Assembly: GCA_000934665.2 (NCBI GenBank)
Contig: JYFJ02001049.1
Location: 62,001 to 93,747, forward strand
Source of the DNA: Catajapyx aquilonaris
Lineage: Eukaryota
Direction of reading: 5' to 3'
Length of the DNA stretch: 31,747 nucleotides
Under the pieces are notes generated by a model. That model saw only the letters and a program-made list of their open reading frames with translations. It did no database searches and was not told the DNA's origin. How positions within the stretch are numbered: position 1 is the first letter of the stretch; each line of letters begins with the position of its first letter. The translations under genes and the position numbers were made by a program. Shown piece after piece: positions 7,099-31,747 of the stretch.

Positions 7099-8141
7099 CT
7101 AGCTGAACCGTGGTCGAGTGCCAAAGACCCCTGCTCTGGCGAGGCTGGCCACGAAGTTGTAGGTGACCAGAAACACTAAGACTAAGAGGAAGGCCTGGAA
7201 GAGGAATTCCAACCAGTCGAAGGTGTCCGACGACTGTCCGTCACTGGATGCGGAGGGCCCCTCTGCTGCAGGTGGTTCGCTCGCTGCAGATGGTTGGCTC
7301 GCTGCAGGTGGTTGGCTCACCTGAGCCTGCTTCGGGGCAGACTTTGCGGTAGACTTAGAGCCGCGCGAGGAGCTGCGCCCCGCCGCCTCCTGCACCCCTC
7401 TGCCCGGTCTGCCGCCAACTCCTCCTCCGGGCGCACTCCTACCCCGGGCAGGGCACCAAAGTGTTAATCCCAGTGTTTAGTTTTAAGCGGGGGAGTTTAA
7501 GGGAGATTATTCTGCGGCCGATCTCAAACGAAGCTTGCGAAAGGAGGCGGACATGATGGATAAATCGGGGCTGGTCATAGCATAGCAGTTATTTGCAATC
7601 CCATGTACTGTATTTTACGACACAAGTGTGTGACTTACGGTGGTGGGAAGATCACGTTCAGTGACGGGTCATGGTCCAGATCCATGCCATGATGATCTCT
7701 GAAGTAGGGCGGTTGTCCATATCCAACTTGAATCCCACGGTCTAATCTCACGACTGGCTGTTCTTGTTGTTGCTGCTGCAGCTCCAGCTGCTGTGCGCCT
7801 CGCCCTGAAGACCACATCCCGCAGCAGTCAATCCAGTCATTGACATGCTGGTTCTGATGTGGGGGAAGCTGCTGGTTCTGATGTGGGGGAAGCTGCTGGT
7901 TCTGATGTGGGGGATAAAGCTGCTGGTTCTGATGTGGGGGAAGCTGCTGAGCCTGAGGTGGGGGGTGGTGGTGGTGGTGGTAGTAGTGTTGGTAAAAATC
8001 TCTGTGTGCATCTTCTTCCTGGTGGGTGGGTGTGACGTGCGGCTGCGGTGGATCATTACGGATCCCAGCGTAGCGTTTGAATTCTGCGGAGAGAGCCTCA
8101 GGAGGAGTCACGGGTCTCTCGTTCACCGTTCGACGACGCAT
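7099..8141 (-). CDS. Hypothetical ~280-aa low-complexity (Q/H/P-rich) protein with one C-terminal transmembrane helix; exons 7639-8141 and 7099-7438
   Basis: The two listed ORFs (7635-8222 and 7099-7395) join in frame through a gtaagt donor (7638) and the first AG after a branch-like ctaaac (7440-7439), in phase 2. The ATG at 8141 is in an aaacATG context. The hydrophobic segment FDWLEFLFQAFLLVLVFLVTYNFVASLA is followed by a short basic tail. No recognisable family. Confidence 0.6.
7847..7948 (-). repeat. 24-bp coding tandem repeat, about 4 copies, encoding LPPHQNQQ (one copy has an in-frame Tyr insertion)
   Basis: The unit gctggttctgatgtgggggaagct is repeated; the length variant is +3 nt and preserves the frame. 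Confidence 0.9.
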
Positions 8142-8599
8142 GTTTACCCGCCTCCAGCTAGGGCATCGGGTGTTGAGTGTTTGACAGGGTGGTTTCCGCG
8201 GAGACGGGAGAACTGTCTGCACTTTCCAAATCTCCCCGCCATTCCTCTCTGGCCAATAGGCGACGATACCGTATATGTGTTGGCACCACTGGAGAGATAT
8301 GGCGTTGTGTGAGTAGCGGCTATTATTATATTAGTTCCAAATATAAGCAGCTGCTGTTGGATTCTTTTTCCAGTTAATATGCTAATGTACTCACTGCATT
8401 TTGTGCTGCCGTGCATGCTGCATTTATTCTGCTATAGAAAATGCAGGAAGTAACATAGAAGAACGGCTCTTGTGTTGCTGCTTCAACTCTATTAATTAAT
8501 GTTTTCTCTGCTTTGTGCTGTAATAAAATAGCCGCTATGTAATGTAGCAGAAACTAATCAACAGCTTCCACAGCAGCTTCGCTTCTTGAGTTTCATCAG

Positions 8600-11900: not shown

Positions 11901-14900
11901 GAAACAGTGACGTCACCATTTCCCTACATAAAAACCCCAATTACTCCGGAACTGAAACTGATATCTTAAAACGGAATATGCCAAAAAAATCCAAAAAATA
12001 TGGGCGAATTTATTATGTAGTTTCCAAAATGAAGGCTACTTCCCCATTGCAAAACCTTACCACATTGATTTTGTGATCACTAAAAGAGAATTAGTTACTC
12101 TGCACGTGGTTATAAGTTGAGCTTTTTAACAGCTTCCTGAGCGGCACAATCCTCACCCAAAGTCAACCTATGATGTAAAACAGGGTCGCACTTGCCCCGA
12201 CTCACCTTACTTTTTTTATATAGCACATATGAGCATATTTAAATGTATGTGCGAGACTAAATGTAGGAGCTAAGTAAGTCAGGAACTGTCCCTATTAGGT
12301 ATTTAGCATGCTGATGAATAATTGTACTTACGTTCAGACTGAAGGGTGATGTAAAAAGGTCTATTAGAATTTTCTAAGTCAATTCTTACCTCCCCACATA
12401 ACATTAGTGTCATTTTAATAATATCCACAACTGTTTACAGGATCTGGCCATTGTGTTGCAAGACAAAAAACAACTAGAAGAGATAGTGAGAGGCTTGCGC
12501 CAGGAGAACAAAAAGCGTCGAAAGATGTTGGCATGGCATCAGTCCACCTTTGCATCTGGTGATTGCAATAAAAAACAAGATGGAGGAAATAACATAAAGG
12601 AAATTGTGGTCCACTGTCCTTACTGTCCAAAGGCCTTCCTTGCCACCAACTTTCTGTTCATACATTGTGCCAGGCGGCACCCTGATCGTAGCCCACCTGT
12701 AATATCTGTGCCAATTCAGCCTATATTATCAAGTAACAACAGTGCAGTGGAGTTAGGGGAGGAGGTGATAAATCCACTTGAGAAGGAAGTACAGGAGCTG
12801 AGAAAGAAGCTGAGGTATGCTGAAAATAAGGCATTGGATGAAGGCATGCATCAGCAGGTAGGAACACATTTTAAAAATATAAGTCATCAATTTGTTTGAA
12901 TGTTTAATTATTAACCTTTGTTGTCATAGAAGGGTAAGGAGGAAATTGAGAGGGAGAGGATGAAGATGAGCTTGGAGCAATTGAGACTGGATCTTGAAAA
13001 AAAGCATCAGGAGGAGATAATGAACTTGAAAGACATGTTTCATGAAGAAGTGCAGGTAAGGTGGAGTGGTTGGATTTTTACTGTCTTCATTGTCACTTAC
13101 ATAGAGCTTAATAATTATGTATATTTTGTGTCTATTTTGTAAATGAAACAGATTAATATTTTTGCACATTATGTGCTTTGCATGGACAGTCTTGATTTTG
13201 TACAGTGAAATCTGTTTATAAGGAACCCTGCATGCAGTCCATGCATGTCCATGGGCTGATTTTGCTTGGTCTGAGAATGAAAATTTCAATGCACATGGGT
13301 TGCACCAGAAGTCATGGCATATGTTTTTAAATATTAACTCAGTTTTTAGCTTAGCCTTTAAGGATTAAGGATGGTTTATACTCTCGGGTAAGGGCCACGT
13401 AGTCAGAGTAGCAGCTTAAGAATAGAAGACCAAGTGGTTTATAGTTCTTACAAAGTAGCCTACTTCCCAAGCTACTGTCACGATTTGCAAGCCATCGCAT
13501 ATGTCGAAAGTGCTTGCACGCTTTCTGACCAGGTTTCCCCCCCCCCTATACAAATCACCTTTATAAAGTAATGTCCATTGAACTCTGCAGTGTCTACATT
13601 GCATGACCAAAACTGGTCTTAGTCCAAAAGAATGCCTCTCAATCATTTATTTTGACATACTCAACCTATAGACATGGAGTTGTGGATTAATTGTTGAACA
13701 CTGCCCGTCGCACATCCCGCCAGACCTGTCAAGGACACTTTTTAAAAACTTCAATTATTGTACATTTTAAAATGCCCATGGACCACACTGCAGACAAAAT
13801 CATCATGAGTGCAATTTTTTTTTGCATAAAAATAGGCACAACACCAATAGGGCAATCAAATGTACTATATCGCTCAAAAAGATAGAGACGATTGGCATTT
13901 GATTCAAGTGCAAGTTGCACTTGAGTCAAATGCAAAATCGTCTCTATCTTTTTGGGCGATATAGTACTTTGCAGGTTTTTTCAAATATTCATTGATGATG
14001 ATGATGATGATGGTGATAACACACCTAAAAAAATAATTAGAGTAATACCAAGGTGGGCAGAGAAGTTATAACTCACAAGGGAATGACCAAGGGTGGTAGC
14101 CTCTGATTTGACTGAAACTTGGTTGAGGGGTCAATCATGGCACACAGTGGTGAAGGTCCTAGACTGCGACTTTCAGACATTTCCGAGATATGAGCAATTG
14201 AAACATCCGAATTTTGGCTGCGCGTACAGGGTTCGGGCAGGAAAAGGACAAGTTCAAGGTCCCTGTACCCCTATACACACAGACAAAATTAGGGTGTTCC
14301 CATCGCTCATATCTCAGAAACGGCTGAACCACTGTATTTATGGCACATGATTGATCGCTCATGGGGGAGGTGTGGTGGCCGAGATGGTAACGTCTCGGCT
14401 TGCTGAGTGGAAGGTCCCAGGTTCGATCCCCGCCTGGGAGTTCCCTTCCACCTGCGTCAGGAGGGTCTCTGACCTGCACCAAGGAGGTGTCTGGCAACCT
14501 AACCTCCTGGGGAACAGCACATGGCCCCTTTTCAGACAATGCACTCGCACCCATGTTCCCTCCCCAAAAATCCCTTATCCTTACTTAATGTCCTTGTTTC
14601 CCTGCACTGGAGTGAAGATAAAATTAGAAAATTGATTGAAAAATGGTGGTGTACCATCCCTTATAGAACCCGTCATCATGGGGTACAAAAAAATAAAAAA
14701 TAACAAAATAAAAAACTGATCGCTCATGCATGTTTCAGCCAAATCGGAGGCTACCACCCTTGGTCATTCCCTTGTCAGATCTTTTGTGCACTCGGGTTTA
14801 TTTCTCATGAAATAGTGGAAATGGAACATATGCCCAACAATAATAATGACATTTTCATGTGTTTGGTAGGCCAAAACATTTTTTAGATTGGAGTTGCTCA

Positions 14901-17900
14901 AATGTATTGTAGCTGACTAATATGTAGGGAACCATCCACAAATGTACAGAGTCATGTTCAGACATGCAGACTAGCAAAGGATTTCAGTATTATGTAGTCC
15001 AGCAATCTAGCTGGTAAAAGTGAAGTTTGTGAGTGGGGAGGGGGAGGCATCAGAATTTTCATTTTACCAGCCAGACTAGTTAACGCAGTTTTCTGTTGCA
15101 AGTCTACATTTCTTAAAGATACAGTGTGTGAAGTGTAACAACATTTTGGAATACATTAATTTTATGAAATAATTATATTGAGGGCTACTGCTACCTGGTG
15201 GATCTGATCGTACAATAGACAAAAAAGTGATTCAAAAGGGATAGCTTTATTAACTTTAAGCTCTTGATTGATCAACTGTCACGTGCTCGTCATTTTGTGC
15301 AAAGTGACTTGTATGATGTCTTACCAGGGGAATTGTTTAGTTGCAAACTCCTCAGTTGCATATAAATTGCAAAGCTGTGCTTCCTGTGGGGTCTCTTCCA
15401 TTATTGACCATAATGTTTCTTCTCATATATCCTAACCTTGAAGCGAATCCCTTTCTCCTCATGCCAGCCTTGCAAGGCCCTCTCATCTACCACTGACACA
15501 AAATCATCTTCTTGAAACTTTGGAAAAAATGTGTCACATTTAAAAGTTGCATTTATGTGTGTGAGATACATGCGGTGCAAGTAGGGACTCTCTAGTGCCA
15601 GTTTGTATATTTCAGATCCTCCATGAACCCATATTGTTTCCACATGTTTGAGCCTATTACACACTTCCAGTGCCTCTCCTAGGCTTCCAACCCAGTGTAC
15701 ATCTTTATTTATGTATGCAGGTCTTGAAGAGTGGCTTATCACAATGTTCAGGGTGTTCGGAAAGGGTTGCAGGTCCAAATCTTTGAGCGTGTCCCATGTC
15801 CGACGTCCAAATATAGCTGCATTTTGCTTTCTTGAGTCAGTGGTGGAAGTAGTGAGATGGAGATAGTGTTCCCAGTCTTTAGTGAGGTGCCAGGGAAGGG
15901 CCTGATCACGGCCAATACCTCTCTCAGAATCCAATGCTGCTATTATGTTCATTTCTATAGATGTATCTACCAAATAGTGATTGTGTGATATTATTTTCAT
16001 TTTTCTTCATGGTGAAAATAAATAACTAGGTAGAATGCTGGGAAAGTATTTGAGCATGTCATGAGGCATAATATTTTACAGTCAGGAGTGGCCAAGAATG
16101 GTACAAAAGCTAAAAATGAAGGAAAGGTCAAAGCATGGTTATTTTTTGCCACTTTCAGTGGAATTTTAAAGTTTATGTGTTTGATAATAGTATTTCTTCA
16201 ATGGGCATTATGATCGTTGATCTTGTTCATACCATTTATTCATATTTAAGCTTGCATCATAGAAGACTATTTAAAAACTCCATATGAATAATGAATGTAT
16301 TAGGTAGCACTTCATGTATGCTTACTTTATAGCTAGTGCAATGCAACAAAATAAGATTCCTTACCTTGCTGTTGTGTAGTCCCAGTTGGCCTTGGCTAGA
16401 AAGGAAGGCCCCTTCACTCCTGCTTGATTCTAAAGGTGAATGTGAAAAGGAAAGTGGAGGGGAAAACTGCTTGGCAGGAGGGCAGAGGGGAGGGGAGAGT
16501 CGGTTTTCTTCTCTTTTGTAATCCCTTATAGTGGCTTGATCTGCCATTGGTTCAATTAAGTGCTTGGGGGCAAGTAGACATCCTGTTTTAAATGAGTTCC
16601 CAGAATAAGTATCATGTGAACAGCAAAACCTTTACTTGTGCAAATCATACCTTAGGGTTAAGATTTTTTTCTCTCTAATTGGCCACCATAATTTCTTGCA
16701 ATTGAATGATTCAGCGACACTCATAGTTTGAATAGTGGGATAATTTTATTATCTTATCTTTATTTTGATAAATGGCATATCTTACAATGATTTCTAGACA
16801 TTTTTCCTTATTTGTTGAAAGACTTTCGCAAGTCTTTGAAAGGGCAGACAGTGACATCTGTTCAGTTCTTGTACCCTATTTAACTTTATTTGGTGTTAAG
16901 ACCACTACTACTACCTACTTACCACAAATGGGATATAGAGGTATATCTGCAATTTGCCAGCTCATACGTGTATTTGTCATGTAATATTCCGGATTAAAGA
17001 TGAAATGAGTAGGAAATCCATAACCTAATCATCATTGCAGCACAAAAGATGATCCTGTAAAAGGCCCAAGGTGGCCTATCATGGGGTATCCATCATCATT
17101 ATTATTATCATTGCAGCACTTAATTTGAGGGCTGTTACAGTGGTCCTTGGACTTACACCATAATACTGTACATACTGATGACAGTCTCATGGTTTCTTTT
17201 TAATGAACTTGGTTCATCAGTTTGAACATTTTGAAAACATGGTGCCTTTGTGGACATTGGTAATACTAGTACTGTACTGTAACACTGTAAGTAACATTTG
17301 ATTTATTCTCTGAATGATTGTTGCCTGAACTTCTATTTCAGAAAATTCAGGACAAGGTTGGCAGTATGACACCTCAGAGCATTTCTCCTCGCCTGGGAGA
17401 CCAACCAGACCTTGTAGATAAGCTGCATCAGCAAGATCTGGAAATACGCAACTTGCAGGACCAGCTCAAATCTCAGGTAAGTCCTTTCTGACATACTGGT
17501 GGCATGTTTAAATGGGCTACATTTATTTTTTGGGGTGCTAATTGAAGGAGGCCAGGAGGTGAACATGGGGCTCATCAAGGGACTGTAAAAAGAAAGAAGA
17601 AAAAAAAAGAGAGGATGTGAAAAGCAGGATGGTGTTACATGTGGGAGCATTATATGGAGGTTTTACTGTATTTTAATAATGCTTTGCCATCACGGCTTCG
17701 GAACAAGAAGGGAGGAAATGGTGGAACCCACTCTTGTGGGATCAGCCGCTTTGCCTGAATTTATGAAAATTTTATTGAGACCAGCATTTCATTACATAAA
17801 ACTGAGCATCTTGGAAAATAGAATCAGTATTTTAGCTCATACCTTGAGTCAATTTTACCGAATCCTGCTAATTTGACTTGTTAATAATTGCCATTATCTG

Positions 17901-20900
17901 CAGCATTGTCAGGGGGGAAGGAGAGAGGAGGAGGGAAAATGAGAGAGAAAGTGCTTAGTGTGACGCCAACAGAAGGATGAGTTATATGCTCTTGGACGAT
18001 TAGGCCATAAGAGGGCCGCATTTCATGCAGATTATTGTGAACTTTGAAAACATTGTGACGCAGTTGTGAGTTGTGTAGTGGGAAGAGGAGATTGTGAGGA
18101 TGAACCAGTGCATTTTTAAGAAGTGAAATTCCTTCGACAACATTTTTTGAAGTTGTTAATTTTTAATACCATTAATTAATATTAGTGAAAATAGTATCTA
18201 TTTCCTGTTACATTTTTCAATCTTCTCAATATCCATGTAAACTTAGAGGATAAAGTGGATGTTACAGTAAATAAGTTGCACAATTTAGAATGTATCTTAA
18301 TATTGGAATGTGATGAAAACTTTTATTTTCATTATGTGCAATTCATTATACTTGCAATTCTGCCATCCCAAGGGGAAACACCCTAACTCCAAAACTAGTA
18401 GGGGTGAAAGTCACATACATGCCCTGCACTAATCCCCCCTGACTCAGGAGGGATTAGCGCAGGGCATGCCTGCGACTTTAACCCTGACTAGTTTTTCAGA
18501 TAGGGTGTTTCTCCTTGGGATGGCAGAATTAGCATTGGTTTAATGGGCAGTATACCCTGCAGTAATAAATTCAATGTTTAACTCAATACAGCTGAGCAAA
18601 GACCTGGGCAATGTTGAAGGACGACTGGAAGCTCAGGAGCGCTACTGGAAGGCAAAGCTGAAACAAATACAAGATCACCATGCAGCTGACATGCAGCATC
18701 TGAAAGAGACAATGGAAAAGGGTCAGAGAGAAGGTAGGCAATGGTTAGAAACTGTGGTTAATTGTAATCGGTATTATTTTTTGCAAGTAACTTACATTTA
18801 AATGACAGTGTCTAATCTGCAGTCTAGAAGTGAAATTACACATTTAAGGGCAATTTTAAGGCGAAATCTAGGGAAGCAGGCACCAAACTCAATGAAACCA
18901 ATCAAATGAATTTGTTTTTCGGCATGTGTTTTTAAAGATACCAACCAGGGGTGTTGCGAGAAAATTTTGGCAGGATATACTCTAGAAGTGCAAAGGCTTA
19001 ACAAACAGTGTTCTTTCCCCCTCTGGTCAACCAAAAGCATGATTACATACCTGCAATGCTTTACACTGTACATGTTGCAGTATACACACACAACCTTTTT
19101 TTGCTGAATTTTGCTGAACATGAGGCTTCTTGAAGGGGTGTAAGCCATAATGTGTGTGCCATATATACTATAGCCTCACATTTAGATTTTTCTCTGCTGG
19201 GTGTATGTCGCATACCTGTGTACAGTCGGCTCAAGGAGTATGTTACCAGACCCCTAACCTAGAAATTTCTAGGTTAGGGGTCTGGTAACATACTCCTTGA
19301 GCCGACTGTACCCCCTCTGCAACACCCCTGGATACAAACATTTTAGCACCTTTACTCTTATACCATGAAGGTAAATGTTGCTAACTGCATAATTGATTAA
19401 GCCAGTGGTTTCCAACCTTTCTTGAGTCACAACCCCCTTTTATAATAGCAAAATGACCTGCGACACCACCTCATTTGCATAAAATGGCATAACTTGTGCC
19501 TGCCACGCTTGGCACCAAGGCCAGCAAATGGAGATCGGCCCCATCTGGACTTCAGTTGTGACGAGAGTATTACCTTGTAGTACGAGGGCCGTTCCAAAAT
19601 GATTTACAACTTCATTTTACAAATACATGGACCATTGAGGTTGGAAAATAGGCACACATTATTGATAGAATCCTGCTGGAGCCGAAAACACTGGCACCAT
19701 GCGTGTGGCAATTTCCAGGCCCTCCAGGAACCACTTTATGGTGGTGCGGCGCACCCAGTCCTGGACAACTGCTCACAGTCAACAATGTCCTCGAAATGGT
19801 GTCGGCGAAGGATATTATTAAGTGGATCCGAACAGGTGAAATTCACTGGGAGCCAGGTCCGGAAGTATGGTGGGTGTGGAAGCACCCAAAGCCGAATCCA
19901 TGAAAAAATCCCTTTGCCGATGCCATTTTGAGGACATTGTTGACAGTTGTCGACTGTAAGCAGTTGTCTAGGAGTGGGTGCGACGCACCACTAAACCGTA
20001 GTTCCTGGAGGGCCTGGAGAGGTTTCCACACCACATAAATCCTGTGTATTCGGCTCCAGGAGGATTGTATTGATAATGTACACCCATCTGCCGACCTGTG
20101 AGAGCCCTGTATTTTTGGCAATAAAATAAATTGTAAATTATTTTGAAACAGCCCTCATAGAAGATTAATTCAATCTAGACATACTGTATTAAAACACGAA
20201 TGTAAAAAAACCTTCATGGACAAATAATTTCCTGTAAAATTTATTGCAAGTAAAAATTACCGTTACGACTGCGCGACACCCCCGCCCCCCCAGTCACGAC
20301 CCACAGGTTGGAAACCACTGGCTTAAGCAAACATTAATATTGGTATTTACATTTCTAACCATTCCTGTGAAAGAATGACAAGATGTTGCTTCTAACAATT
20401 CTTTTGTAATTCACATGATTGTAATTTATTAATATTGGCATTAATTAATTTCATTACTAATCAAGGGCAAAATGTCATGAATATCAGCTGAAAGAACATG
20501 TGTTGAACTTACAGGTTCACTTGCATCGTCAATGCAAGCCTTGCAGATTAAGGGCCTCCACGAGCAGTCAGTAGAGCAGGAGGCTAAGCTGAGAAATCAG
20601 GAGGAGAAGATTAAAGATCTGATCCACTCCCCACCTACTCTGGAAGGTGTGAACAGAGGCAGCAGTAGTCCTGTTCAGACACCACGCGCAGCCACATCCA
20701 CCAGTGAATCCCAGGAGTCATCACCCAAGTTGACGAGGGGCAAGGGAAAACCACCATCAGCTGTAGTTAGACAGCAGGTTGTTCACTCCACTCCCAGGAA
20801 TGAGATCCCTGAGCCCAGTGAGTCCAGCATTGAAGCAGTGGATGAAGAAGAAGAAGAAGAAGAGGAAGAGGAAGAAGATGATGAGGAAGACAAGGGGATG

Positions 20901-23900
20901 TCTGTGGCTGAGGAACCAGTTCCATCAAGGTAAAGGATAATTATGTGACATTCATTTTATGTGGTTCAGTTTTGTAAGTCTTGTAAGTTACTTGTTCCAG
21001 TAGTGTATGAAGAAATTATCAATCTTTGAATTCTTAAATACTAAATTATATGGGAGTGTGTATTGCTGTATTTAAATTGTACTTTGAAGTTGGTTTGCAT
21101 GTGATGCTTTTGTGCTGCCTGTCTTGCAGCTGCACTACATAAATTGAAGTTATTTTTGGTGGAGCCATTATGTAGCATATGCTTAGGGTCACAATTTTGT
21201 TGGATTTGCAGTGAAGCCTGTGTATAGGGGTAGCCAAGGGGGTAAGTCACTCCTCAAAAAAGTGTGCACCAGCTCACTTGAATTGCTCACTGAAGTGAGT
21301 TGCTCTTAAAGCTGAGGGAAGCCATGGAGAGATGCAGAAGGTTGAGAGCCAACAGCCCACAGGGTAGGGACGAAGGTCTCATGCTGCACGTTTTGTAACA
21401 ATAAGTACACCAAAACTGAAAATCAGTCCTCACCGCACGTCACTATGGGCTTCGAGTGCAGCTGTGAGTGTGGATTCCCCCTGCAAAATGCGCATTTGTG
21501 CCATATGACTCACCTGTTGGCTCTCCAGCCCTTCGTGGCTCACCAGTGAGGGTGTACACCGGCTCATTGAAGCGACTACCCCCTTTTGGGTTAGACCATA
21601 AAAATTCTCCATAAGACCCATTCACACAGGCCGTCGACAGTTTTGGTCTTTGGTCACGTTGACGCCGCAGACCAATCATATGAGTGGTCCACGGCGTCAA
21701 CGCAACGAAAGACCAAAACTGTCGACGGCCAAATTCATAGTATACCATCAAACAGGGTGAGATTGTGACACACTTTGAGGTTTTTCTTATAGTAGGGCAG
21801 ATAGGTGAAACAATTGTGCCTTTAATGATAGAAGCATGAAATTTGGCACACTTTTAGACAACACCCTAATGGACGTTTTTGGAAGGGCAGCTATCTCAGA
21901 TTTTTCCTGTAATTAAATTACGAGCCATTTTTCAAAATGGCGACTAGGTGTCATATAAACGTCTTATTTTTTGTAGTTATTTATGTTCGATCATTTATTG
22001 TGGCCATGCGATGACTATTTTTATATATTTTTTAATATTTTTATTTTACGTTACCCCGTGATAAGGCTGAGCCTTTTTAGGGGGGTGGAATACCACCATT
22101 TCACTCCATTTTCATATATTAACTTCATTCACCGGTGCAAGGAGTCAAGGATGTAAGGTAAGGATAGGGATTTTTGAGGAGGGAACATAGGGTGCAAGTG
22201 CAAGGTCTGTAAAGGGGTCATGTGCTGTTCCCCAGGTGGTTAGGTTGCCAGACACCTCCTTGGTGCAGGTCAGAGACCCTCCTGACGCAGGTGAAAGGAA
22301 AGTTCCCCAGGCGGGGATCGAACCTGGGGCCTTTCACTCAGCAAGCCGAGACGTTACCATCACGGCCACCACACCTCCCCCCATGCGATGACTATTAGAA
22401 GTAAAATACACTTTTGAAGTAAAAAATAATTTAAAGTATAATAGTATAGTGTACTGTATAACAATCATAATCATATTCATAATTTATAACATACGAGGCC
22501 CATATCATTCTATTGTAAAATTTTATGGTATCGTTTGCTACCTTTCCCAAATTGCCACTGTGCCCATCAGGGTAATATATAAATATATAAGTAAGTAAAT
22601 AAATACATAAATAAATATCATTTTATTGGGATAGTCAAGTGAAGAAAAATAAACTCCTTCACAACTATTGAGAGTTGTTTATTTGATACTCATGCAGTGT
22701 CTTGGATTACTAATTTTTATTTTATTGTCCATTAAAAACTTTAAAATCAAGCATCAACAAAAATTAATTTTACAGGCCTAATAACACCAAGTCGCGAATT
22801 TCATTTGCCATTGCCAACCTCGTTCATCCTTCAATGTAGTGAAACATGTCTACATTCGCTAGTTTACATCTGCTCCCAGTAGGGCACAGTGTTGTCCAAA
22901 AAATGTACTGGTACAATCTCACCACATTTGACGGGTATTTATGAAAATAAAACCCTTGCTCTTATTGAATAATTTTTTAACTGTTTAGTTTTTACTGTAT
23001 ACATACTAACTAACCATACTAACTAACGTGGTGGGGAATACTACCCCGCCACAATTTTTTCCACACTACCAGAGACAGTTTCGCCCCCAAATTTGCCGCC
23101 CCTAAAAATTTGCTGCTCTAGGCAGTTGCCTACTTTGCCTAAATTGGGAAATATGGCCGTGGCTGTTCCCTAATTGTCACAACTTCATTCTTTTCCCAGA
23201 ATTAATGCAGTACAAATATAGCAAAATATAATGGATAAGTTATTCTTTATGAAGAAGGGCTTGTAATTCTTTCAAGAAAACTTTATTTTGTCATTGGGTA
23301 AAGTATTCAGTATTTTGTGATTAGTATTACTCTAACAGTTTCAGGACTATGACCCCAAAAGCAACCCCACAAAAAGCAACAGTTGAGGTTCCTGAAGGGA
23401 GTTCGAAATCTTTGAAAGCATTGCGAAAATCTGCAAACCAAAACCTGTCACCTCATCTGAAGAGATTTGGCATTTCACCAAATGAAACCCACCTTAGTGC
23501 CTCCAGAAAGAAAGAAGTGGTGAAGAAGCTGCAGAAGGAGAGGGACAAAATAAGTCAGGTATAGCCTGTGTACCTAATTTTAATGTAATATTCTCAGTGA
23601 TGAGAATGACGTAGTGATTGAGGACCTTTACCGTAGTGCCTGTTGCACATTATGCAGTGAGTCCAAGATCTAGAGATATTTTTGTAGTTTTGTGTACTTT
23701 ACTTTGTATTGACACTAGTGGTGAGTTTAAAATCATAACATTTTGGCTGTTGGTCAGTGTTATTAATGTTATTAATTTCAATGTTGGGTAGCAATATCCA
23801 GAATACAGACACATTCGCACCCAGCTGGAAAAACAAGTAAATGCCAGGGTGCAAGAGAAGTTATGGGAACAGGCTGACAACCAACCATTTCAAAAAAGGA

Positions 23901-25986
23901 GCCCTTTAAAGAAGCTGATGACCATTGTCAAGAAGAAGTCGAAAGAATTCACCAAGTCACCTTCACCCAGAGGTGAGTCTCTTCACTATTTCCTATTTGC
24001 AAATACAATAATAACTATTATAATGATGATGATGATGATGCAGGAAGGAGTGGAAAAGTGCACCTGGAGACACCAAAGCAGACTAAGTCATCACCAGTCA
24101 AAACAGCTCCACATTCTGCCCCACCTATTATCCGCAGTAAAAGTCAACTGGAGAGGAAAACTGGTCCAAAGTGAGTTGTAGAACTTATCTACTGGATAAA
24201 ATTAAGGAAATGCACAGGATAATATATTTAAAAGCTTGTGTAACAGGCTTTTGCTCTTATTATTGAACCAATGAAGCAAAATATTGATGTTATTTCAGTT
24301 TGGTCTTTCATTTCTGGCTGCAGTAGCCTACTGGCTGATATTAGATAATTACCTTTTTGATGTATGATTATTTTTATTTATGACATTAATATTTATGTTT
24401 GCAATTGCAGGAAGAGCGTGTCAATGGTTCTTCCGCCAAAGGACACAAAAATGAGTTTGGAAAGGGAAGAGTCCAGTAGTGAGTCATATGAGAGTGACTT
24501 GGGCACAAAGCAGGCACCCAATGAGACGATCTCAAACTTGAGTCCCCAGAGAAGGAAGGCTGTGGTCAGAAACCTACTTCCCAGCTTTGAGCAAGTTTCT
24601 GCAGAAGTGGAGCAACAGGAAGATATCCGCAGAGGAAAATCACATTCCAGGTTAGTTCAATAATTTGTACTGGAAAAGTCCTCAAAAAAATGACTGTGTG
24701 TTTCAGTTGGGGTATTATTTGTATTATATTGATTGAGGATTTTTTGCTAACTGAGGCTAAGTGAACTAAGTTTCAAGGTTTTTCTTCCTTAGTTTCATTG
24801 TACAGGGCGTTTGGCCTAGCTGATGATCCAAGGAGGGGAGATGGAGGAGTGTTGATGGATTAGTCACTCTTTGGCCATGGTGTAACCCCACCTCAGACTC
24901 AGCACATGATTTTGGTCTCCCTTTACCATTTTGAAGCAGCTGACTTGTTTATATTTCCAAGGGTGACTAATGCATCAGCTCTTCCATTTCCTCCCTCTTC
25001 AGATTGTTCACTTACGCAGAGAAACATCTGTCCGCATGTATAAATTTATTTTAAGAGCCAGCCGGCCATCTCTCCCCCATAAAGAGATATGACGCCAATG
25101 AAGTAATTTGATTACTGACCTTGAGAGCTCTCATATCTTCATTTTAAAAATCTATTTCAGCTTAGCGGACATGCAGAATATTCCAGACCTGCCAGATGAT
25201 AATATAAAATTGAAGAAGCCGTCACCTGGTTCAAAGGTGGCTGAGCTAAGCAGAACTATAGAGGAACAGTTGAGTGGACCACGAAAAAAGCCTGCTGGAG
25301 GAGTAAACGTGATGGAAAATGAAGAATACCAACCACCACGTGACATCTCCCTACCTGCCCGAAAAGAGACTAGTAAAGATAATGATGACGATGATGATGA
25401 TTCCTTCTCATTTCCTTCATTTGATGAGCCATATCAACCTAAGAGGTGAGCATCTGCAATCATGTTCCAACTTTATGAAGAGAGCATTTGGAATTTGATT
25501 TTTGAAGCTTTCCTTACATGAAATGGAACTAATTTTATAAAGTTAGATTCTTAGCTGCAATGAGTAAGACATTTCCAATTACAAGTTAGTTATGTTTAGT
25601 AAGTTGACTTACGTTTATGTATAGTCAGTATGCTGTGGGGAGTACAGTAATAGCTGGCACCTTATTATTAATAAGCAAATTGGATACAAGAAAACTACTC
25701 ATCATAAGTTCAATGAATATGTAGTACCGCTTATGTTCTAGAAATAAGACACAATAAGATCCAACTAAGCAATCAATGTACTTGTCCCAGGGCATCATCA
25801 GCGCATTCCACCAACACCCTTGGCACCAGCAAGTGGGGATCGACCTCCGAGATGGGGCAGGAAACCCTCTCAGGCACTACCCCTGCAAGTGGAAAGCCAC
25901 CAGTGCCTAAGCCCAGATTCTTGGGTAGACAAAAAGGGTCCTGGGACTCAGACTCAGACTTTGACATCAGTGATGTTATAGAATAA
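8918..25986 (+). CDS. DZIP1: DZIP1/Iguana-family C2H2 zinc finger and coiled-coil ciliary basal-body protein, ~942 aa; coding exons 8918-9026, 9311-9546, 12441-12857, 12930-13055, 17342-17476, 18592-18733, 20515-20929, 23339-23558, 23792-23972, 24044-24170, 24411-24650, 25161-25445, 25791-25986
   Basis: Dzip-like N-terminal domain (WQFQRKTEKLDWRKLAAVDVERIVRNLDVQTLQDNM...LDPSMVKLFRLAQLIIQYLL), one C2H2 finger CPYCPKAFLATNFLFIHCARRH, coiled coils, and a C-terminus ending WDSDSDFDISDVIE*. All 12 splice phases are mutually consistent (2829 nt). AATAAA at 26378-26383. The exon 8 acceptor could alternatively be 6 nt downstream. Confidence 0.9.
10674..10803 (+). pseudogene. Decayed transposase N-terminal pipsqueak-type HTH fragment
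   Basis: Translates as KGTSYTQDNLAEACDEVA*GVSTAYRASKNYGIPKG, then after a frameshift in a G6 run TLYDHI. This fits the HTH_psq pattern Y..E.L..A...V..G......A...YGIP..TL.D. Confidence 0.7.
10984..11121 (-). mobile_element. 5'-truncated non-LTR retroposon (SINE/LINE 3' end) with an (ATG)n tail
   Basis: A perfect 10-bp direct repeat caaactatgt at 10974-10983 and 11122-11131 brackets the insert, and a (cat)n run abuts the left copy. Confidence 0.7.
11390..12049. mobile_element. Non-autonomous DNA element with perfect 18-bp TIRs, superfamily unassigned
   Basis: caatggggaagtagcctt (11390-11407) and aaggctacttccccattg (12032-12049), with a CpG-rich interior. No clear TSD. Confidence 0.65.
13862..13967. 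repeat. Near-perfect ~106-bp palindrome (fold-back MITE, TA ends)
   Basis: gtactatatcgctcaaaaagatagagacgatt...tgcaagttgca...aatcgtctctatctttttgggcgatatagtac, with about 3 mismatches in the arms. Confidence 0.9.
14076..14774. mobile_element. Non-autonomous DNA transposon (about 40-bp TIR, 3-bp TCA duplication) interrupted by a SINE
   Basis: caagggaatgaccaagggtggtagcctc at the left end, gaggctaccacccttggtcattcccttg at the right end, and tca on both flanks. Confidence 0.8.
14364..14716 (+). mobile_element. tRNA-derived SINE, full length
   Basis: A box tggccgagatgg, B box ggttcgatccc, A-rich tail, 12-bp TSD tgatcgctcatg (14352-14363 and 14717-14728). A second copy lies at 22020-22380. Confidence 0.92.
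15401..15952 (-). CDS. DHFR: Dihydrofolate reductase-family protein (divergent), 183 aa, uninterrupted CDS, antisense within DZIP1 intron 13056-17341
   Basis: Motifs GIG....LPW, KQNA.I.GRRTW, GGSEIY, YLTHI..TF.CDTFFP and EEKGI.F...YEK. The ORF is intact, with an alternative upstream ATG at 16000. Minus-strand AATAAA at 15246-15251. Confidence 0.93.
   Translation of the reverse strand: MNIIAALDSERGIGRDQALPWHLTKDWEHYLHLTTSTTDSRKQNAAIFGRRTWDTLKDLDLQPFPNTLNIVISHSSRPAYINKDVHWVGSLGEALEVCNRLKHVETIWVHGGSEIYKLALESPYLHRMYLTHINATFKCDTFFPKFQEDDFVSVVDERALQGWHEEKGIRFKVRIYEKKHYGQ
18360..18526. mobile_element. Fold-back MITE flanked by AATT
   Basis: aatt-ctgccatcccaagg.gaaacacccta at the left and tagggtgtttc.ccttgggatggcag-aatt at the right; the arms pair almost to the centre. 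Confidence 0.85.
18946..19330. mobile_element. Non-autonomous DNA element with short TIRs and an apparent 9-bp TSD
   Basis: TIRs caggggtgttgc and gcaacacccctg; flanks gataccaac and gatacaaac (1 mismatch). Confidence 0.65.
19220..19311. repeat. Perfect 92-bp spacerless palindrome with Tc1/mariner-like TA-CAGTC ends
   Basis: gtacagtcggctcaaggagtatgttaccagacccctaacctagaaa is followed directly by its exact reverse complement. Confidence 0.95.
19403..20320. mobile_element. Non-autonomous hAT (Charlie-like) element carrying a nested mariner derivative
   Basis: 16-bp TIRs cagtggtttccaacct and aggttggaaaccactg; 8-bp TSD gattaagc / gcttaagc with central TA. Confidence 0.88.
19583..20157. mobile_element. 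Mariner-derived fold-back element made of two inverted transposase 3' ends
   Basis: Ends TA-cgagggccgttccaaaat and attttgaaacagccctca-TA. The minus strand at ~19670-19890 encodes a frameshifted VLPHPPY(S)PDLAPSEFHLFG...HFEDI...VQDWV...WFLEGL..LP..W..C, i.e. the mariner YSPDLAP motif and C-terminus. Confidence 0.85.
20842..20891 (+). repeat. (GAA/GAG/GAT)n coding microsatellite giving a poly-Glu/Asp tract in DZIP1
   Basis: Encodes DEEEEEEEEEEEDDEED. Confidence 0.85.
21629..21730. repeat. ~102-bp imperfect palindrome (MITE-like hairpin)
   Basis: ggccgtcgacagttttggtcttt at the left and aaagaccaaaactgtcgacggcc at the right (23-bp perfect outer stem), plus an inner cgttgacgccg / cggcgtcaacg stem. 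Confidence 0.88.
22020..22380 (-). mobile_element. tRNA-derived SINE, second full-length copy
   Basis: Reverse complement of the 14364-14716 element, with a T-rich tail on the + strand and a 16-bp TSD ccatgcgatgactatt (22004-22019 and 22381-22396). Confidence 0.92.
22556..22891. mobile_element. Small CAC...GTG-ended element (Chapaev/Transib-like)
   Basis: TIRs cactgtgccc and gggcacagtg; flanks ttgc and ttgt; AT-rich interior. Confidence 0.45.
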
Positions 25987-26133
25987 CCACCACGCTACTC
26001 TGCACAGTAACATATCCTATACAAAGTTACAAAGCATTGATAGAAGAGGTCCCAGGCCATCATCAGTTAGGTTCAATAGAAATATGAGTATCTTAATTGC
26101 ATGAGTAGGGTTGTGACTATATTGAAAGCCAAT

Positions 26134-26242
26134 GGGTGGAATTTTCGTCGTACTACTAGTTACTTTTAACTTAGCAGTACCATTGCATTACATTGGTACT
26201 GCTAAGTTAAACGTAACTAGTAGTACGACGAAAATTCCACCC
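26134..26242. repeat. 109-bp hairpin MITE in the predicted DZIP1 3' UTR
   Basis: gggtggaattttcgtcgtactactagttac...ttaacttagcagtacca, a loop, then the reverse complement; aat on both flanks. Confidence 0.9.
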
Positions 26243-28124
26243 AATGCAATGAAAAGAACATGATTCGTGGCAGTAGGTTTATAATATCTCGTGAGGGTTG
26301 GAACTGAATTCATGAGAAATCGCTTTTATTTGGAATGCCAAAAGCAATAATGAAGTGTGATGAATTTTAGTACTGGCAATAAACTGTCAGATGGTGACAG
26401 CTGTTGAGATGTAGTCGGTGAATCTCGCAACAATCCTAGTAAGAGATATCATCACTGGCATAAACACTGATTCTTGTAAAAAAATTAAATACCCCAGGCA
26501 GCTGCTGGTTGGTATCAATTGCTATCACTCTCTCATGTCTTATTCATCTATGGCACGTCACTAACAACCCTAGTGACAACGTTGAAGATTATAGATATAT
26601 GTTTTGAGTAACACTTTGGGCAGTAGTCATTTGGCTGTTCTTCAATAATCACGATATTAATTAATATAATGTTGATCATGGCTTTTGTTCCAACCCTTGT
26701 AACTGTGGTGTACCAGTGTCTTTTCCGTCCTGAAGGAAATCTGGCTGCAAACGAAGTTTATTTATGGATTCAGTCCTGTTTCACAAAATGGCTTGAAAAA
26801 TATATGACTTAAGAGCCCTCTGCAACTCCATAGGGCCTTCTGAATAAGAAATTTAACCTCAAAATGCCAGCAACTTTTAAATAAACATGCGATTTTTATG
26901 GTCCCTGAGATGGAACATGTTACAAGCCAGTTTCTATAACACTTGGGCCAGGAGTTTGGGAGAATCCACACGATTTGTCCAACCATTTGTTTTGCATGCT
27001 ATGCTTTATGAAATGATCATACTTGACATCATTGGAACAGGCTGAGAGTCCTGTAAACTTCACAGTCAGTGTGACCCTTAAGACTGTAGTGAATTTTATT
27101 TCCGTCCAGAAGTGGTGCAAACATATCGACATTTAAGCATATGTTTAAGGGCTATATTTGTGAACATTTCTACTGTAGTTTAGTCATTGTGCCAAAAAGT
27201 AGTTGGCTGAATTTTCATTTTGTGATAGTTTGATTAGATTTATAATGTAACCTAGTCATATTTGTATTTGGCACTACCATAAGATCAGATGGTAATTACA
27301 TGCTCTCTCACTTAAAATGTTCTGTTAGATGGAAGCCATCGATGGCCTGTGCTGTGCTGGCCAAGTACGTACATACAGTTTATGGGTGGCATTCTAGTGC
27401 TATTGAAGTAAAGCAGTACAGTTATCATGCTTTCCATCATATTTCTGAAGCATGGCCATCCTTTGGGAATGTGAAAAGATAACTCACTGCTTTGCCTTCA
27501 CTGGATGCATTTAGTTTAATTTGAGCCTGTATGTCATTAGGGTATCCATGCACAAAGTTAGACCCAAAATTAAGTGTGACAAGCGCTTGTTTTGCAAATG
27601 CACATAGGCAAAGAGAGGGGCATTCGGGACAGGGAGTGCAGTGGTGCATTCATGTCAATTAAAGTGATTTTGGCACATACAGGGTTTTTGCTTGGGGAAT
27701 CAGAGGTAATAACGAGGCACTTTGAATAAAATACTACTTGTCAGCTAAATATCAAAATCTGCCATTAATTGTGGCCCTAGTCAAGCACAATTTTATGAAC
27801 ACATGAAAATTATGAGTATTTCTGAATGCTGAACTTTTTGTCCATAATGTGATCAAACATGAACAAAAAACCTTTTTTCAGTGGTGACACTCTCGAGTCA
27901 TGTGCATTACAATACTTGTGCCACAATGCCTGATGCATGGAGATAGATCAGCTAGTTAACATGTAAAAAACACCAAAATATACTTGTGCAATATCCTGAA
28001 AATCTGACCTATAAATATACAGTTTAAGGTGAAACCTGTTTGTAGGGGACCCTGGATGCAGCAAAACCTGGCCCATTCCAGAACTACTGTGTGGTTCCAC
28101 CCACAGGGTTTCCAATATACTGTA

Positions 28125-28300
28125 CAGTCGACTCTGGATATAAGATCCTCGGCTATTAGCAACCATTGGTTATACCAAACTCGAAAGGCTGGTCCTGGCA
28201 TACTTCCATATATGGCCTGTGCATTTGGATGTAGGAAACCTAGGTTATAGGATACTGATTTCCACAGTTCCTTGAAGTCTCTTATATCCGGAGTCGATTG
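28125..28300. mobile_element. Tigger/pogo-like MITE with TA duplication
   Basis: Ends ta-cagtcgactctggatataaga and tcttatatccggagtcgattg-ta. Confidence 0.75.
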
Positions 28301-28441
28301 TATTTCGGTAGAATGGAAACCCACCTCTTCTGACAACACCCTGACAAACTCAGTTTTAATTACCCAATACATTTCCATGCAGCACATGGACGCAAGTTGT
28401 TATAGTGAAGATTGGTGATGTTTTTTGTCCTCTTGCCTTCT

Positions 28442-29056
28442 TCAGGAGTCATCGTGATCTTCATCCTCTTTCTCTGATTTGCATGGAGGGCATGATGGAG
28501 GAGAGAAGGGGGAGTAGCTTGGAGAGGTCGGAGAGTAGCTTGGAGAGGTCGGAGAGTAGCTTGGAGAGGTCGGAGAGTAGCTTGGAGAGGTCGGAGAGTA
28601 CGTAGGTGATGATGGGGAGTAGCTTGGAGAGGTTAGAGAGTAGTACTTAGGTGATGTTGGGGAGTAGGTTGGAGAGGTTAGAGAGTAGTACTTAGGTGAT
28701 GATGGGGAGTAGGTTGGAGAGGTAAGAGAGTATGTTGGTGACATGGCGTTGTAGTTAGGTGATGATGAATAGGTTGGGGAGTGAGTGTGGAAGGCTGCGG
28801 AGCACTTATAAGATGCTGGGGTGTGCTGTGGGGAGCCTGGTGAATAGGATGGGCTTTTGGGTGGGTATGATGGACTTGGCGAGGTGGCACTGTACGAAGG
28901 GGATGTGGTGCTCTTGGTGGGGCTGTGTGATGGGCTAGCTGTAGAGCAGTTTGGCGTTGTCGGTGTGAGGCTGGGAGAAGTTGGTGCATATGCAGGAGAT
29001 GATGGCCTCATTGCTCCAGCCCCTCTCTCACTCGTTCTTGGTTCTTGCTTGTCCAT
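28442..29056 (-). CDS. Stand-alone 204-aa protein composed of RNA polymerase II CTD-like heptad repeats with an acidic C-terminal tail
   Basis: Four perfect YSPTSPS, plus [35 protein letters not shown] and more degenerate N-terminal heptads; ends [10 protein letters not shown]. An in-frame stop lies ~20 codons upstream of the ATG, and no RPB1 core sequence is present in the remaining 2.7 kb. Minus-strand ATTAAA at ~28355-28360. Confidence 0.7.
28512..28733 (-). repeat. Coding tandem repeats: four identical 21-bp units (28512-28595) followed by about three 45-bp units
   Basis: gagtagcttggagaggtcgga x4. The 45-bp unit encodes YYSLTSP(S/T)YSP(S/T)SP(K/T). Confidence 0.92.
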
Positions 29057-29189
29057 GCCCCTTGGTCTACACTCAAGGCCTTGGCCTTGGAGCCGTCTTC
29101 TGGACCCGAGCTGTCCCCTCAGTCACTTTGTTCAGGAAGCCCCTCTTCCTCAGGCTCTGTTCTTCGTCAGATTTGGGGCCGACTGCGGA

Positions 29190-29910
29190 CAAAGATGGGC
29201 ACAGCTAACCGAAAAATCAGATTCTCTAACAGCTGATCAGCTAACTATAAAAAATTGGATTTGCTAAATAGCTAATGCTAAATGGCTAGAAAATTGTTAA
29301 AGCTAAATAATGCTAACAGCTAACTTTTATTTTGGAATGGATGCTTTTTTGGCTATATGACCCTTAGAAAACAGACCTAAGCTGATAAAGCCTAGAGTAC
29401 ATTGCTACACATACGCCTTATTTAGTTACTTACTGTTCCGTACAAAAAGTAATAAACAAATCCAAAGAGCAATAACGTTTATTGCCTTATTGGTCACATA
29501 CTGATACTCTTACATTTTTACTCCATCATTTGGGAGTGATGGTTGGCCATAGGGCCTGGAAGTCCCCCACATTTTTGGACATTGAAAGGAAGACTTTCAA
29601 TTTTGGGTCATCACCAGTGGGATTCCACCATAGGGATTAGGGCCTTGAAGTCCCCACCCATAAACTGGTCTATTTTAATCCCTGCCTGGAGTGGAAACAA
29701 TGCAACTTTAAAAAGTAACAGACAGCGAGACAGGAACACGAATGAATTTTGTTAGCTGAATTTATTTAGCTGCAGTGCGGCACCAAATTTAGTGGGAGCT
29801 AATTAGTCAGCTAGCGGCCTGAAATGTTAGCGAAAACAGCCAATCAGCTAACTGAAAGATAGTTCAGCTATTATCTGTTAGCTGATTAGCGGCGGTAATG
29901 CCCACCTTTG
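29190..29910. mobile_element. Non-autonomous hAT element just upstream of the CTD-like ORF
   Basis: TIRs caaagatgggca and tgcccacctttg; 8-bp TSD actgcgga / actgtgga; many subterminal (a)gctaa / ttagc(t) repeats. Confidence 0.88.
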
Positions 29911-30246
29911 ACTGTGGACGTGTGGAGCAGGCCTCGAAGCCACTGCTGGACCCGAGCTCCTCTCTTCTTAAACACTGGGGACTAACTGCTCCTTATTGTG
30001 TGTCTCTTGATTACTCACTTCACTTTATCACAGCTTTTGCTGTCTGCATAACTGCCAGCTCAGCCTCACCCCTCCTGCTCCACTATCTTCTGCTTGATTC
30101 CCTTTTATGCAGGTTGTGCATCACTATTCACATGCTTATGTGTCAGCCTTATTCTTCTTGATGCTCATCTATATGTGACCTACAGCTCACCCCCGATTAG
30201 GGCAGGTATCAGCAATCATGTGCCTCCCCATCACAATGGGTATAAC

Positions 30247-30357
30247 CAGGGATGGAAAAAGTACCGCTTCCTTCCAAGAAGCGCTTCTTTTTTCCATGTG
30301 CAGGGATAGAAAAAGAACCGCTTACCGCCCAAAGAAGCGGTTCTTTTTCCATCCCTG
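30247..30357. mobile_element. 111-bp hAT MITE built from two tandem hairpin units
   Basis: TIRs cagggatggaaaaag and ctttttccatccctg; perfect 8-bp TSD ggtataac. Confidence 0.9.
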
Positions 30358-30554
30358 GGTATAACTCTTTTCAAAACAGCATTATTCGAATTCAATTTAT
30401 TGAGCACTCACAGCCCATTCAACCTATTAAATGAAATGAAATTTGACATTCATTTCACATCCACATTCAATGTTACTAAATTCATCTTGCAAGTCAATTC
30501 AATTCATAACAAAAATGAGTACAGTATTTAATTTCTTCTTCAGAATGCCAGATA

Positions 30555-30760
30555 CCGTCAAACGGGGTGAGATTGTGCCAGTGCACTCTTTTGTGCCTTA
30601 CTAATCTACTATTATAGCAGCACACGTAAACTAGGGAATTTAGGCATGTTTCACAACATTGAGGGATGGTCAAGGTTGGCAATAATGAGTGAAATTTGCG
30701 GTAGGACGAACTGTTGGCGCAAAAAAAAATGCACTGGCACAATCTCACCCCGTTTGACGG
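30555..30760. mobile_element. 206-bp pogo-like MITE with perfect 31-bp TIRs and TA duplication
   Basis: Ends ta-ccgtcaaacggggtgagattgtgccagtgca and tgcactggcacaatctcaccccgtttgacgg-ta. Confidence 0.92.
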
Positions 30761-31073
30761 TATGTATCCCCTTTTCATGGAGCCATTTTATACTGTCTTG
30801 TCTGTATCTGACAATGCTGGAGGAGTCTCAAAATAGCAATAATGGAGTGCAGTCATATTTTGTACTGAAGCATCATCTCTGTTGCCGTATCATGCCGTTT
30901 AGCTGGAACCATTGTTGTCTGAAGAAGTCTTGTCCGATGAATATCAGTTGAAGTCATTTTCGTCCTATACCATTTTTTCCCCAATATACAGGGTGATTCT
31001 CTCGAATACGAACCCAAACATTCCTCAATAACTTTTTAACTATGGTATGGTTCCTGATGAAAATTAACATGTA

Positions 31074-31461
31074 CAGTCCCGCTCATAGAGAATGGTACGA
31101 CTCTATGGACGAAATGTTTATCCTCATTATCGAGCATGATTCCCCACCTTAATTCGACAAAACCCTATGGACGACCTTTTCTGGACCTCTGGTGACTCGT
31201 GTGATCCATCCCGATTTTGAAATAAAAATTTTCATGGCCAAAATGTTCAACCCGGTGCAATGCTTATGTAGATTTGATGTGAATTTCCCCCCTAAAATTT
31301 TCCAACTTAGCTTTGTTTTTCTCCTCTCTTTTTTTATTTTATTTTGATTCCCTTTTCCCGGACTTCCTCATGACCCCTAAAAACATGCTGGCGGCCCAGG
31401 GGTTGGGAACAGAATGAACATTTCGTCCCTATAGTCATACCATTTTTTATGAATGGTACTG
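31074..31461. mobile_element. Tc1/mariner-like MITE with degenerate ~45-bp TIRs, probably nested in another tacagggtg-type element starting at ~30989
   Basis: Ends ta-cagtcccgctcatagagaatggtacgactctatggacgaaatgtt and aacatttcgtccctatagtcataccattttttatgaatggtactg-ta. Confidence 0.7.
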
Positions 31462-31747
31462 TACTACCTTATATGATGCCATACAATGTCTGCCTAAAGA
31501 ATATACCAAAAGTTCAGTGAGTCCTAAAGCGTCAGCAATCAGAAAAGTGTGATATTAGTGCATGAATGTGATTCTAGTTGACTTCATATTCAGGCAGGTA
31601 AAATACCAGCATCTCCGAAAAGACTACCCCAGTCTGCAGTTTAAGCATAGGGGTCATTCCATGTCAATTCACCGAGCTTTTAAGGAAAATTGACCCTTGG
31701 GTTGTCAGATTTTGACGAAAATCGGCGAATCGCTTTAATTACGTCTT

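Follow-up and report, generated by a model that had tools for sequence, protein, structure and literature searches.

The window analysed here is a stretch of 31,747 nucleotides from Catajapyx aquilonaris (GenBank assembly GCA_000934665.2, contig JYFJ02001049.1, positions 62,001 to 93,747 of the forward strand), and positions below are counted from its first letter. On its minus strand, 2.7 kb from the right-hand end, lies an open reading frame (ORF) encoding only an acidic tail and tandem heptads of the type that the RNA polymerase II protein RPB1 carries in its C-terminal domain (CTD). An earlier interpretation made from the letters alone, called the sequence-only reading below, had taken this frame for a duplicated or retroposed CTD that has become a separate gene. 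From stop to stop the frame occupies 28442..29122 (226 codons). Its parts, and the signals on either side, are as follows.

29123..29125, minus strand: in-frame TGA, 22 codons 5' of the ATG (ORF listing and sequence)
29054..29056, minus strand: start codon ATG, with G at both -3 and +4; no other ATG precedes it on the minus strand for 345 nt, the next one upstream being at 29402
28442..29056, minus strand: the CTD-like ORF, ATG-started and intact, 204 codons, stop codon at 28442-28444
28745..29005, minus strand: proximal degenerate heptads (residues 18-104), non-repetitive at the DNA level and outside the arrays found by Tandem Repeats Finder, with the frame kept throughout
28601..28732, minus strand: three di-heptad units (YSLTSPT/S + YSPS/TSPK/T) with a 45-nt period and one extra Tyr codon between successive pairs
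28517..28600, minus strand: four DNA-identical 21-nt units, which are the four perfect YSPTSPS heptads (sequence and repeat analysis)
28445..28480, minus strand: acidic C-terminal tail, 7 Asp/Glu in 12 residues, with CPPC before it (translation)
28355..28360, minus strand: ATTAAA, a candidate poly(A) signal 82 nt past the stop codon; the sole AATAAA/ATTAAA in 542 nt downstream, which could be chance

The predicted product contains 59 Ser, 43 Pro, 25 Thr and 20 Tyr among its 204 residues (S+P+T+Y = 72%). It comprises about 20 heptads, including the four perfect ones, two Lys7 units and three YSLTSP units, and carries 32 SP dipeptides. The sequence-only reading had described just such a frame, with its own ATG, this set of heptads, an acidic tail and an in-frame stop shortly upstream, and the ORF listing, the translation and a Pfam match confirm each of these points. 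Structure prediction gave a mean predicted local distance difference test (pLDDT) score of 46.5, with 150 of the 204 residues below 50, and the product is accordingly predicted to be disordered throughout.

The two halves of the array differ in kind. Degenerate heptads come first and consensus heptads last, as the sequence-only reading had also noted: the consensus heptad is matched at 51 of 87 aligned positions (59%; 41% off) in proximal residues 18-104, against 68 of 81 in distal residues 105-188. Tyr1 is retained in only 4 of the 12 proximal heptads, and residues 1-104 hold 12 SP and 3 TP dipeptides. Distal heptads that could be aligned keep Y1 and S2 without exception (11 of 11), and likewise S5 and P6 (12 of 12). 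Tandem Repeats Finder reported periods of 21, 42 and 45 nt across 28512-28741, and the distal half of the ORF is the product of recent DNA slippage, the 21-nt array being a recent expansion. Codon by codon the perfect unit agrees with the YSLTSPS-type unit, save for a Leu-to-Pro change; the consensus repeats were therefore formed anew at this locus and are not an inheritance. Between the two older unit types there are synonymous differences at S2, S5 and P6 (TCT/TCC, TCT/TCA and CCA/CCT); these types are either mutually old or were inherited from the parent as distinct repeats. Short-read contigs break within the array and none among those listed spans 28542-28671, so the number of 21-nt units and the join of the two halves are without independent confirmation.

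Relationship to RPB1

The ORF product matches the Pfam family PF05001 (RNA_pol_Rpb1_R) in six stretches, with an E value of 4.3e-7 and a score of 30.3 bits, the cut-off being 20.3. Compared with three RPB1 CTDs it is 57-64% identical across 175-205 residues, and the best 120 matches to it among longer proteins all carry RPB1 catalytic families. The likeness goes beyond mere composition, with the SPxYxPxSP spacing running the full length of the product. At the C-terminus, 23 of 26 RPB1 sequences that were fetched have at least four Asp/Glu among their last 12 residues; the ORF has seven. At the other end, the opening of the ORF is similar to the conserved stretch of non-consensus sequence with which animal CTDs begin, most of all in tick and barnacle. 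The best local match of this N-terminal segment fell at the CTD start in 11 of the 26 RPB1s, with a margin over the second-best position of at most 8 points (at most 5 in 24 of the 26), and this likeness is suggestive only. Because the PF05001 match, the full-length heptad spacing and the acidic tail occur together, descent from the CTD of RPB1 is favoured; it is the economical reading of the sequence and, in our judgement, a likely one.

Marks of a retrocopy were limited to a run of six A after the stop codon, with no poly(A) remnant, and no direct repeat that might be a target-site duplication flanks 28303-29140 among the 10 direct-repeat families. Old copies lose such marks, and their absence is therefore weak evidence. 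The earlier proposal of a duplicated or retroposed CTD in a gene of its own stands as to its CTD-like character (by PF05001) and its free-standing position in the window; the duplication or retroposition that it invoked would be a possible origin. A 16-nt upstream similarity (29097-29112 and 29943-29958) was also considered and was dropped, since it extends to only about 30 nt. A search of the ESM Atlas with the ORF returned no usable match.

The array appears to be detached from any polymerase. When three complete RPB1 sequences (coelacanth, bat and lancelet) were compared with the 31.7 kb window by tblastn, every match with E <1e-9 fell within 28451-29065. Their catalytic and linker regions gave nothing at E <0.8 anywhere in the window, the linker of ...SPGSPGSP.SPYIPSP type was absent from it, and no RPB1 exon was found in the 2.7 kb between the ORF and the window end, in agreement with the earlier statement that no polymerase domain or RPB1 linker lies nearby. 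The TGA at 29123-29125 closes the ORF frame to any upstream exon. Between this stop and the heptads no usable splice acceptor was found, every AG there being preceded by purine-rich DNA, and the only acceptor-like site (~29187) lies 5' of the stop. The array also differs from a complete animal CTD. Each of the 26 fetched RPB1s has 16-28 perfect heptads, against four in the ORF, which bears out the claim that this does not look like a true RPB1 last exon. In 25 animal RPB1s among the 26, read by eye, the consensus block comes first; in the ORF it comes last. Animal-type CTDs have at least 40 units with consensus repeats proximal and Lys7 or degenerate repeats distal; the ORF has about 20 units in the reverse order. 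In terms of family membership, the PF05001 repeat array and the acidic tail are present, and the catalytic domains to which they should be joined (PF04997, PF00623, PF04983, PF05000, PF04998, PF04992 and PF04990) are missing from the window. To judge from its sequence, then, the ORF encodes RPB1-type heptads in an array that lies outside RPB1 and lacks the attachment to the polymerase that defines that protein, and its free-standing state within the window is supported by the in-frame stop and by the lack of an acceptor and of any RPB1 exon.

Genomic setting

To place the ORF in the genome, contigs of three DNA runs (X1, X2 and X4) of one sample were aligned to 27800-29800 and their depth was summed per bin. 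ORF bins (28336-29139) had summed depths of 11-72, similar to the 21-33 of the unique flank at 27800-28067, and the ORF is therefore single-copy, with no near-identical twin in the genome; it is not a recent duplicate. It sits in a unique island of about 840 bp with high-copy repeats on either side. Contigs of a further run (X5, kind of run not known) matched repeat pieces and 27800-27977 only, with none on the ORF, and no conclusion was drawn from them. The repeats that bound the island are the following.

28123..28302, no strand assigned: miniature inverted-repeat transposable element (MITE)-like element with 23-nt inverted arms, 91% complementary; summed depth 817-1618; bounds the island on the 3' side
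29140..29800, no strand assigned: high-copy repeat DNA, beginning about 85 nt 5' of the ATG; summed depth 106-4863 (X1, X2, X4)

The upstream repeat, of very high copy number (depth to ~4800) and directly 5' of the ORF, contains dense TTAGC/AGCTAA motifs at 29195-29330 and 29835-29890, including the palindrome AGCTGATCAGCT, and a TATA-like TTATAG on the minus strand at 29250; the motif cluster could be a transposon-borne promoter or an array of binding sites. The 6 kb surrounding the ORF contain five MITE-like inverted-repeat elements (26130-26246, 28123-28302, 30241-30363, 30552-30763 and 31071-31464), their arms being 23-56 nt long and 81-95% complementary; the one for which depth was measured stands at about 30-70 times the unique depth.

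The ORF lies 3 kb past the end of a DZIP1-like gene, convergent with it, in repeat-rich intergenic DNA. Between 2064 and 25449 the window holds, in order, an AP sigma subunit exon (minus strand), RPL8 exons (plus), a COMM-domain ORF (minus), a Q/P/H-rich ORF and the DZIP1-like gene, a multi-exon gene on the plus strand (~9283-25449) with introns of several kb. The COMM-domain frame runs uninterrupted over 179 codons, and its best named relative is cockroach COMMD2 (46%). The Q/P/H-rich frame (7635-8330, minus strand, 231 codons) has no Pfam match; 24-nt tandem units at 7846-7964 encode its QQLPPHQN-type repeats and a His run. One intron of the DZIP1-like gene contains an intronless DHFR-like ORF (15401-16006, minus strand; PF00186, E 2.9e-31). 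Its best relatives, from annelid, bryozoan, brine shrimp and butterfly, are 35-43% identical, several of them being tandem double-DHFR proteins of 359-379 aa (annelid and bryozoan), and the DHFR-like ORF may represent either a retrogene or a rapidly evolving paralog. Relatives as distant as these place the host in a thinly sampled animal lineage of invertebrate type. A GAA/GAG triplet run at 20832-20890 gives one DZIP1-like exon a poly-Glu/Asp stretch, and a run of 24 G at 9731-9754, with the only N of the window at 9748, is probably a weak spot of assembly or sequencing. Rfam gave no match within the window.

Gene or relic

The explanation that we favour, tentatively and taking the whole chain together at somewhat less than an even chance, is that the ORF is a lineage-specific orphan gene derived from the CTD, whose disordered product would act as a CTD analogue. 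The CTD-coding end of RPB1 would have been copied and would now stand alone, as a single-copy frame, in repeat-rich intergenic DNA. Its proximal half would represent old, diverged heptads. The distal half would have been rebuilt recently by replication slippage, giving first the three 45-nt di-heptad units and then the four 21-nt units from a YSLTSPS-type unit. Translation would yield a disordered ~21-kDa protein with roughly 20 heptads and an acidic tail of CK2 type, whose 32 SP sites would make it a substrate of proline-directed CTD kinases. The YSLTSP units would be substrates at Ser5 only, to judge from kinase specificity, since the proline after Ser2 is lost in them. Phosphorylated or not, such a protein might compete with the tail of the polymerase for kinases, phosphatases and readers, and so serve as a trans-acting CTD analogue. 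We infer from the sequence that the frame may be maintained as a coding gene and expressed, and that its product may work by competition; given what CTD heptads do, a decoy role is a reasonable one to suppose, and PIE-1, Pgc and Pem-1 are precedents for it. A stronger version would have an expressed and selected 21-kDa mini-CTD act in trans, soaking up CTD kinases, phosphatases or readers or entering transcription condensates, and thereby tuning transcription or damping it globally in one cell type. It would resemble the germline quiescence imposed by PIE-1, Pgc and Pem-1, brought about by real heptads and not by a mimic motif; we consider this version unlikely.

The alternative that survives best, which we regard as doubtful and still deserving of serious weight, is that the ORF is a dead duplicate. 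In that case a fragment of an RPB1 CTD would lie unexpressed and drifting in repeat-rich intergenic DNA, with its frame still open as C-rich heptad DNA rarely makes stops and slippage regenerates in-frame units of 21 and 45 nt. The openness of the whole frame speaks against this. When the 815-nt region was shuffled 5000 times by mononucleotides, 18 shuffles had an open frame of at least 226 codons, as did 20 of 5000 first-order Markov shuffles (~0.4%); the other two minus-strand frames contain 3 and 8 stops. Departures from the heptad register are all in frame over 204 codons. In simulations of neutral decay, with indel-to-substitution ratios of 0.03 and 0.08, the frame was intact in 0-2% of runs at 50-60% identity, a figure that assumes a consensus-heptad ancestor and indel rates of our own choosing. 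Further points against a relic, each weak alone, are the ATG in good context, the ATG-free leader and the well-placed ATTAAA; a 345-nt run free of ATG turned up in 0.08% of the mononucleotide shuffles and 3.8% of the Markov ones, a weak and post hoc result. The GC content of the ORF is 0.53, against 0.39-0.42 in the flanks.

Apart from the assumptions of the simulation, several observations weigh against a maintained gene. The ORF strand is C-rich and G-poor (253 C and 71 G in 615 nt) and few stops are expected on it for that reason; the other two frames also run for 90-109 codons. The ORF stands between transposable-element copies, with about 85 nt of unique DNA upstream and no evident promoter of its own, and the join of its proximal and distal halves across 28542-28671 is unbridged by any listed contig. 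Conservation of the distal heptads is to be expected because they were recently duplicated, and the retention of Tyr1 in so few proximal heptads looks like decay. Protein searches at near and longer lengths (proteins of at least 112 aa) found no ortholog, only RPB1s and unrelated heptad proteins; the best near-length match was 58% identical at 60% coverage, and higher local identities covered at most 29% of the query. All 10 of the comparable free-standing heptad ORFs that were looked up proved to be one-member clusters at 90% identity.

These singletons, the repeats on both sides of the ORF, the degeneracy of its proximal half and the length of the other frames all suit a dead duplicate, as does the finding that the proximal 110 codons alone are open in 3.6-6.9% of shuffles. 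Because the four 21-nt copies are identical, the perfect heptads are young and selection is not needed to account for them. Residue retention at each position of the proximal heptads gave no clear sign of selection. Viral and metagenome contigs scanned with six ORF-specific peptides yielded no relative. The exact ORF sequence is absent from the protein collection, which is uninformative because the neighbouring DHFR-like ORF is absent too, the genome being seemingly unannotated there.

It is quite improbable that the ORF is instead a convergent S/P/T/Y-rich low-complexity protein or a coding minisatellite, not derived from RPB1 and with a function unrelated to transcription. Convergence would be in keeping with the local origin of the perfect heptads from a YSLTSPS-type unit, with the narrow margins by which the ORF opening prefers the CTD start, and with the unproductive Atlas search. 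It is opposed by the full-length SPxYxPxSP spacing and the six-stretch PF05001 match above cut-off, and by an acidic tail of the kind seen in most of the fetched RPB1s. Y1, S2, S5 and P6 are kept across unit types despite their synonymous codon differences, and direct reading of the N-terminus reveals no hydrophobic stretch able to act as a signal peptide.

That the ORF is the true last exon of RPB1, with catalytic exons past 31747 beyond a long repeat-filled intron, is highly improbable: its minus-strand position so near the window end, the several-kb introns of the neighbouring DZIP1-like gene and the resemblance of its opening to a canonical CTD start would allow it, and they are countered by the in-frame TGA 22 codons upstream, the purine-rich DNA before each AG ahead of the heptads, a single acceptor-like site that lies upstream of that stop, the missing linker, and some 20 heptads, four of them perfect, with the consensus block in last place.

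Comparison with known systems

CTD function is normally studied within a 2000-residue enzyme. If the ORF is indeed a CTD-derived orphan gene, a natural CTD-only protein would offer a test of what free heptads do in cells, whether as kinase sink, reader decoy or condensate client, and would bear on whether damping of transcription by derivatives of the polymerase tail has evolved repeatedly among animals. A silent ORF, in contrast, would be no more than a gene fragment in unusually good preservation. The locus shows rapid regeneration of perfect heptads by slippage from a variant unit, and so bears on how CTD arrays stay homogeneous.

With the CTD of animal RPB1 the ORF product shares tandem Y1S2P3T4S5P6S7 heptads, Lys7 and position-4/7 variants, an opening of the SP.Y.P.SP type, an acidic tail and predicted disorder. 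It differs in having no polymerase fusion and its own ATG after an in-frame stop, in the number and order of its units (about 20 with four perfect, against 40-52 with 16-28 perfect), and in the extra Tyr between its di-heptads. It also lacks the conserved ...KGSTYSPTSPGYSP... ending that inspection by eye showed in several of the fetched deuterostome RPB1s (KGSSYSP... in tick).

Other small predicted proteins also carry heptads without a polymerase domain. They measure 200-290 aa and combine 10-20 tandem heptads with flanks that are unrelated; among them are XP_063239470.1 of a stick insect (P0115), CAG9828923.1 of Diabrotica (P0063; sequence not read), P0020, P0024, and the BTB-plus-heptad proteins P0108 and P0112. 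None has the N-terminus, the di-heptad units or the tail of this ORF. No characterisation of these proteins was found in the literature searched, and no free-standing multi-heptad CTD protein of an animal was described in the titles and abstract openings covered, a set mostly outside the subscription journals.

The nearest known way of working to that proposed for the ORF product, by analogy, is that of the germline transcription repressors PIE-1, Pgc and Pem-1. PIE-1 is a zinc-finger protein with a single non-phosphorylatable heptad-like motif. The ORF product, in contrast, would be about 20 phosphorylatable heptads alone, and no sequence relationship to the three proteins was found. PIE-1 of C. 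elegans, Pgc of Drosophila and Pem-1 of ascidians are small, lineage-specific and mutually unrelated proteins that interfere with CTD Ser2 phosphorylation, PIE-1 and Pgc blocking it by binding P-TEFb (10.1101/2021.07.12.452040; PMC2748068).

Yeast Sen1 and Trf4 offer a second parallel. Both carry CTD-mimicking motifs that are reported to bind the CTD-interaction domain of Nrd1 (PMC7110113, PMC4186968), so that non-polymerase peptides occupy the binding site of a CTD reader, as the ORF product might. The motifs described there are single and short and belong to large enzymes, whereas the ORF encodes a heptad array. Finally, di-heptads with interspersed spacers are reported to suffice as functional units of the CTD, both in yeast and in mammalian cells (PMC6548728), and by this analogy the di-heptads of the ORF, parted by one residue, would be compatible with function.

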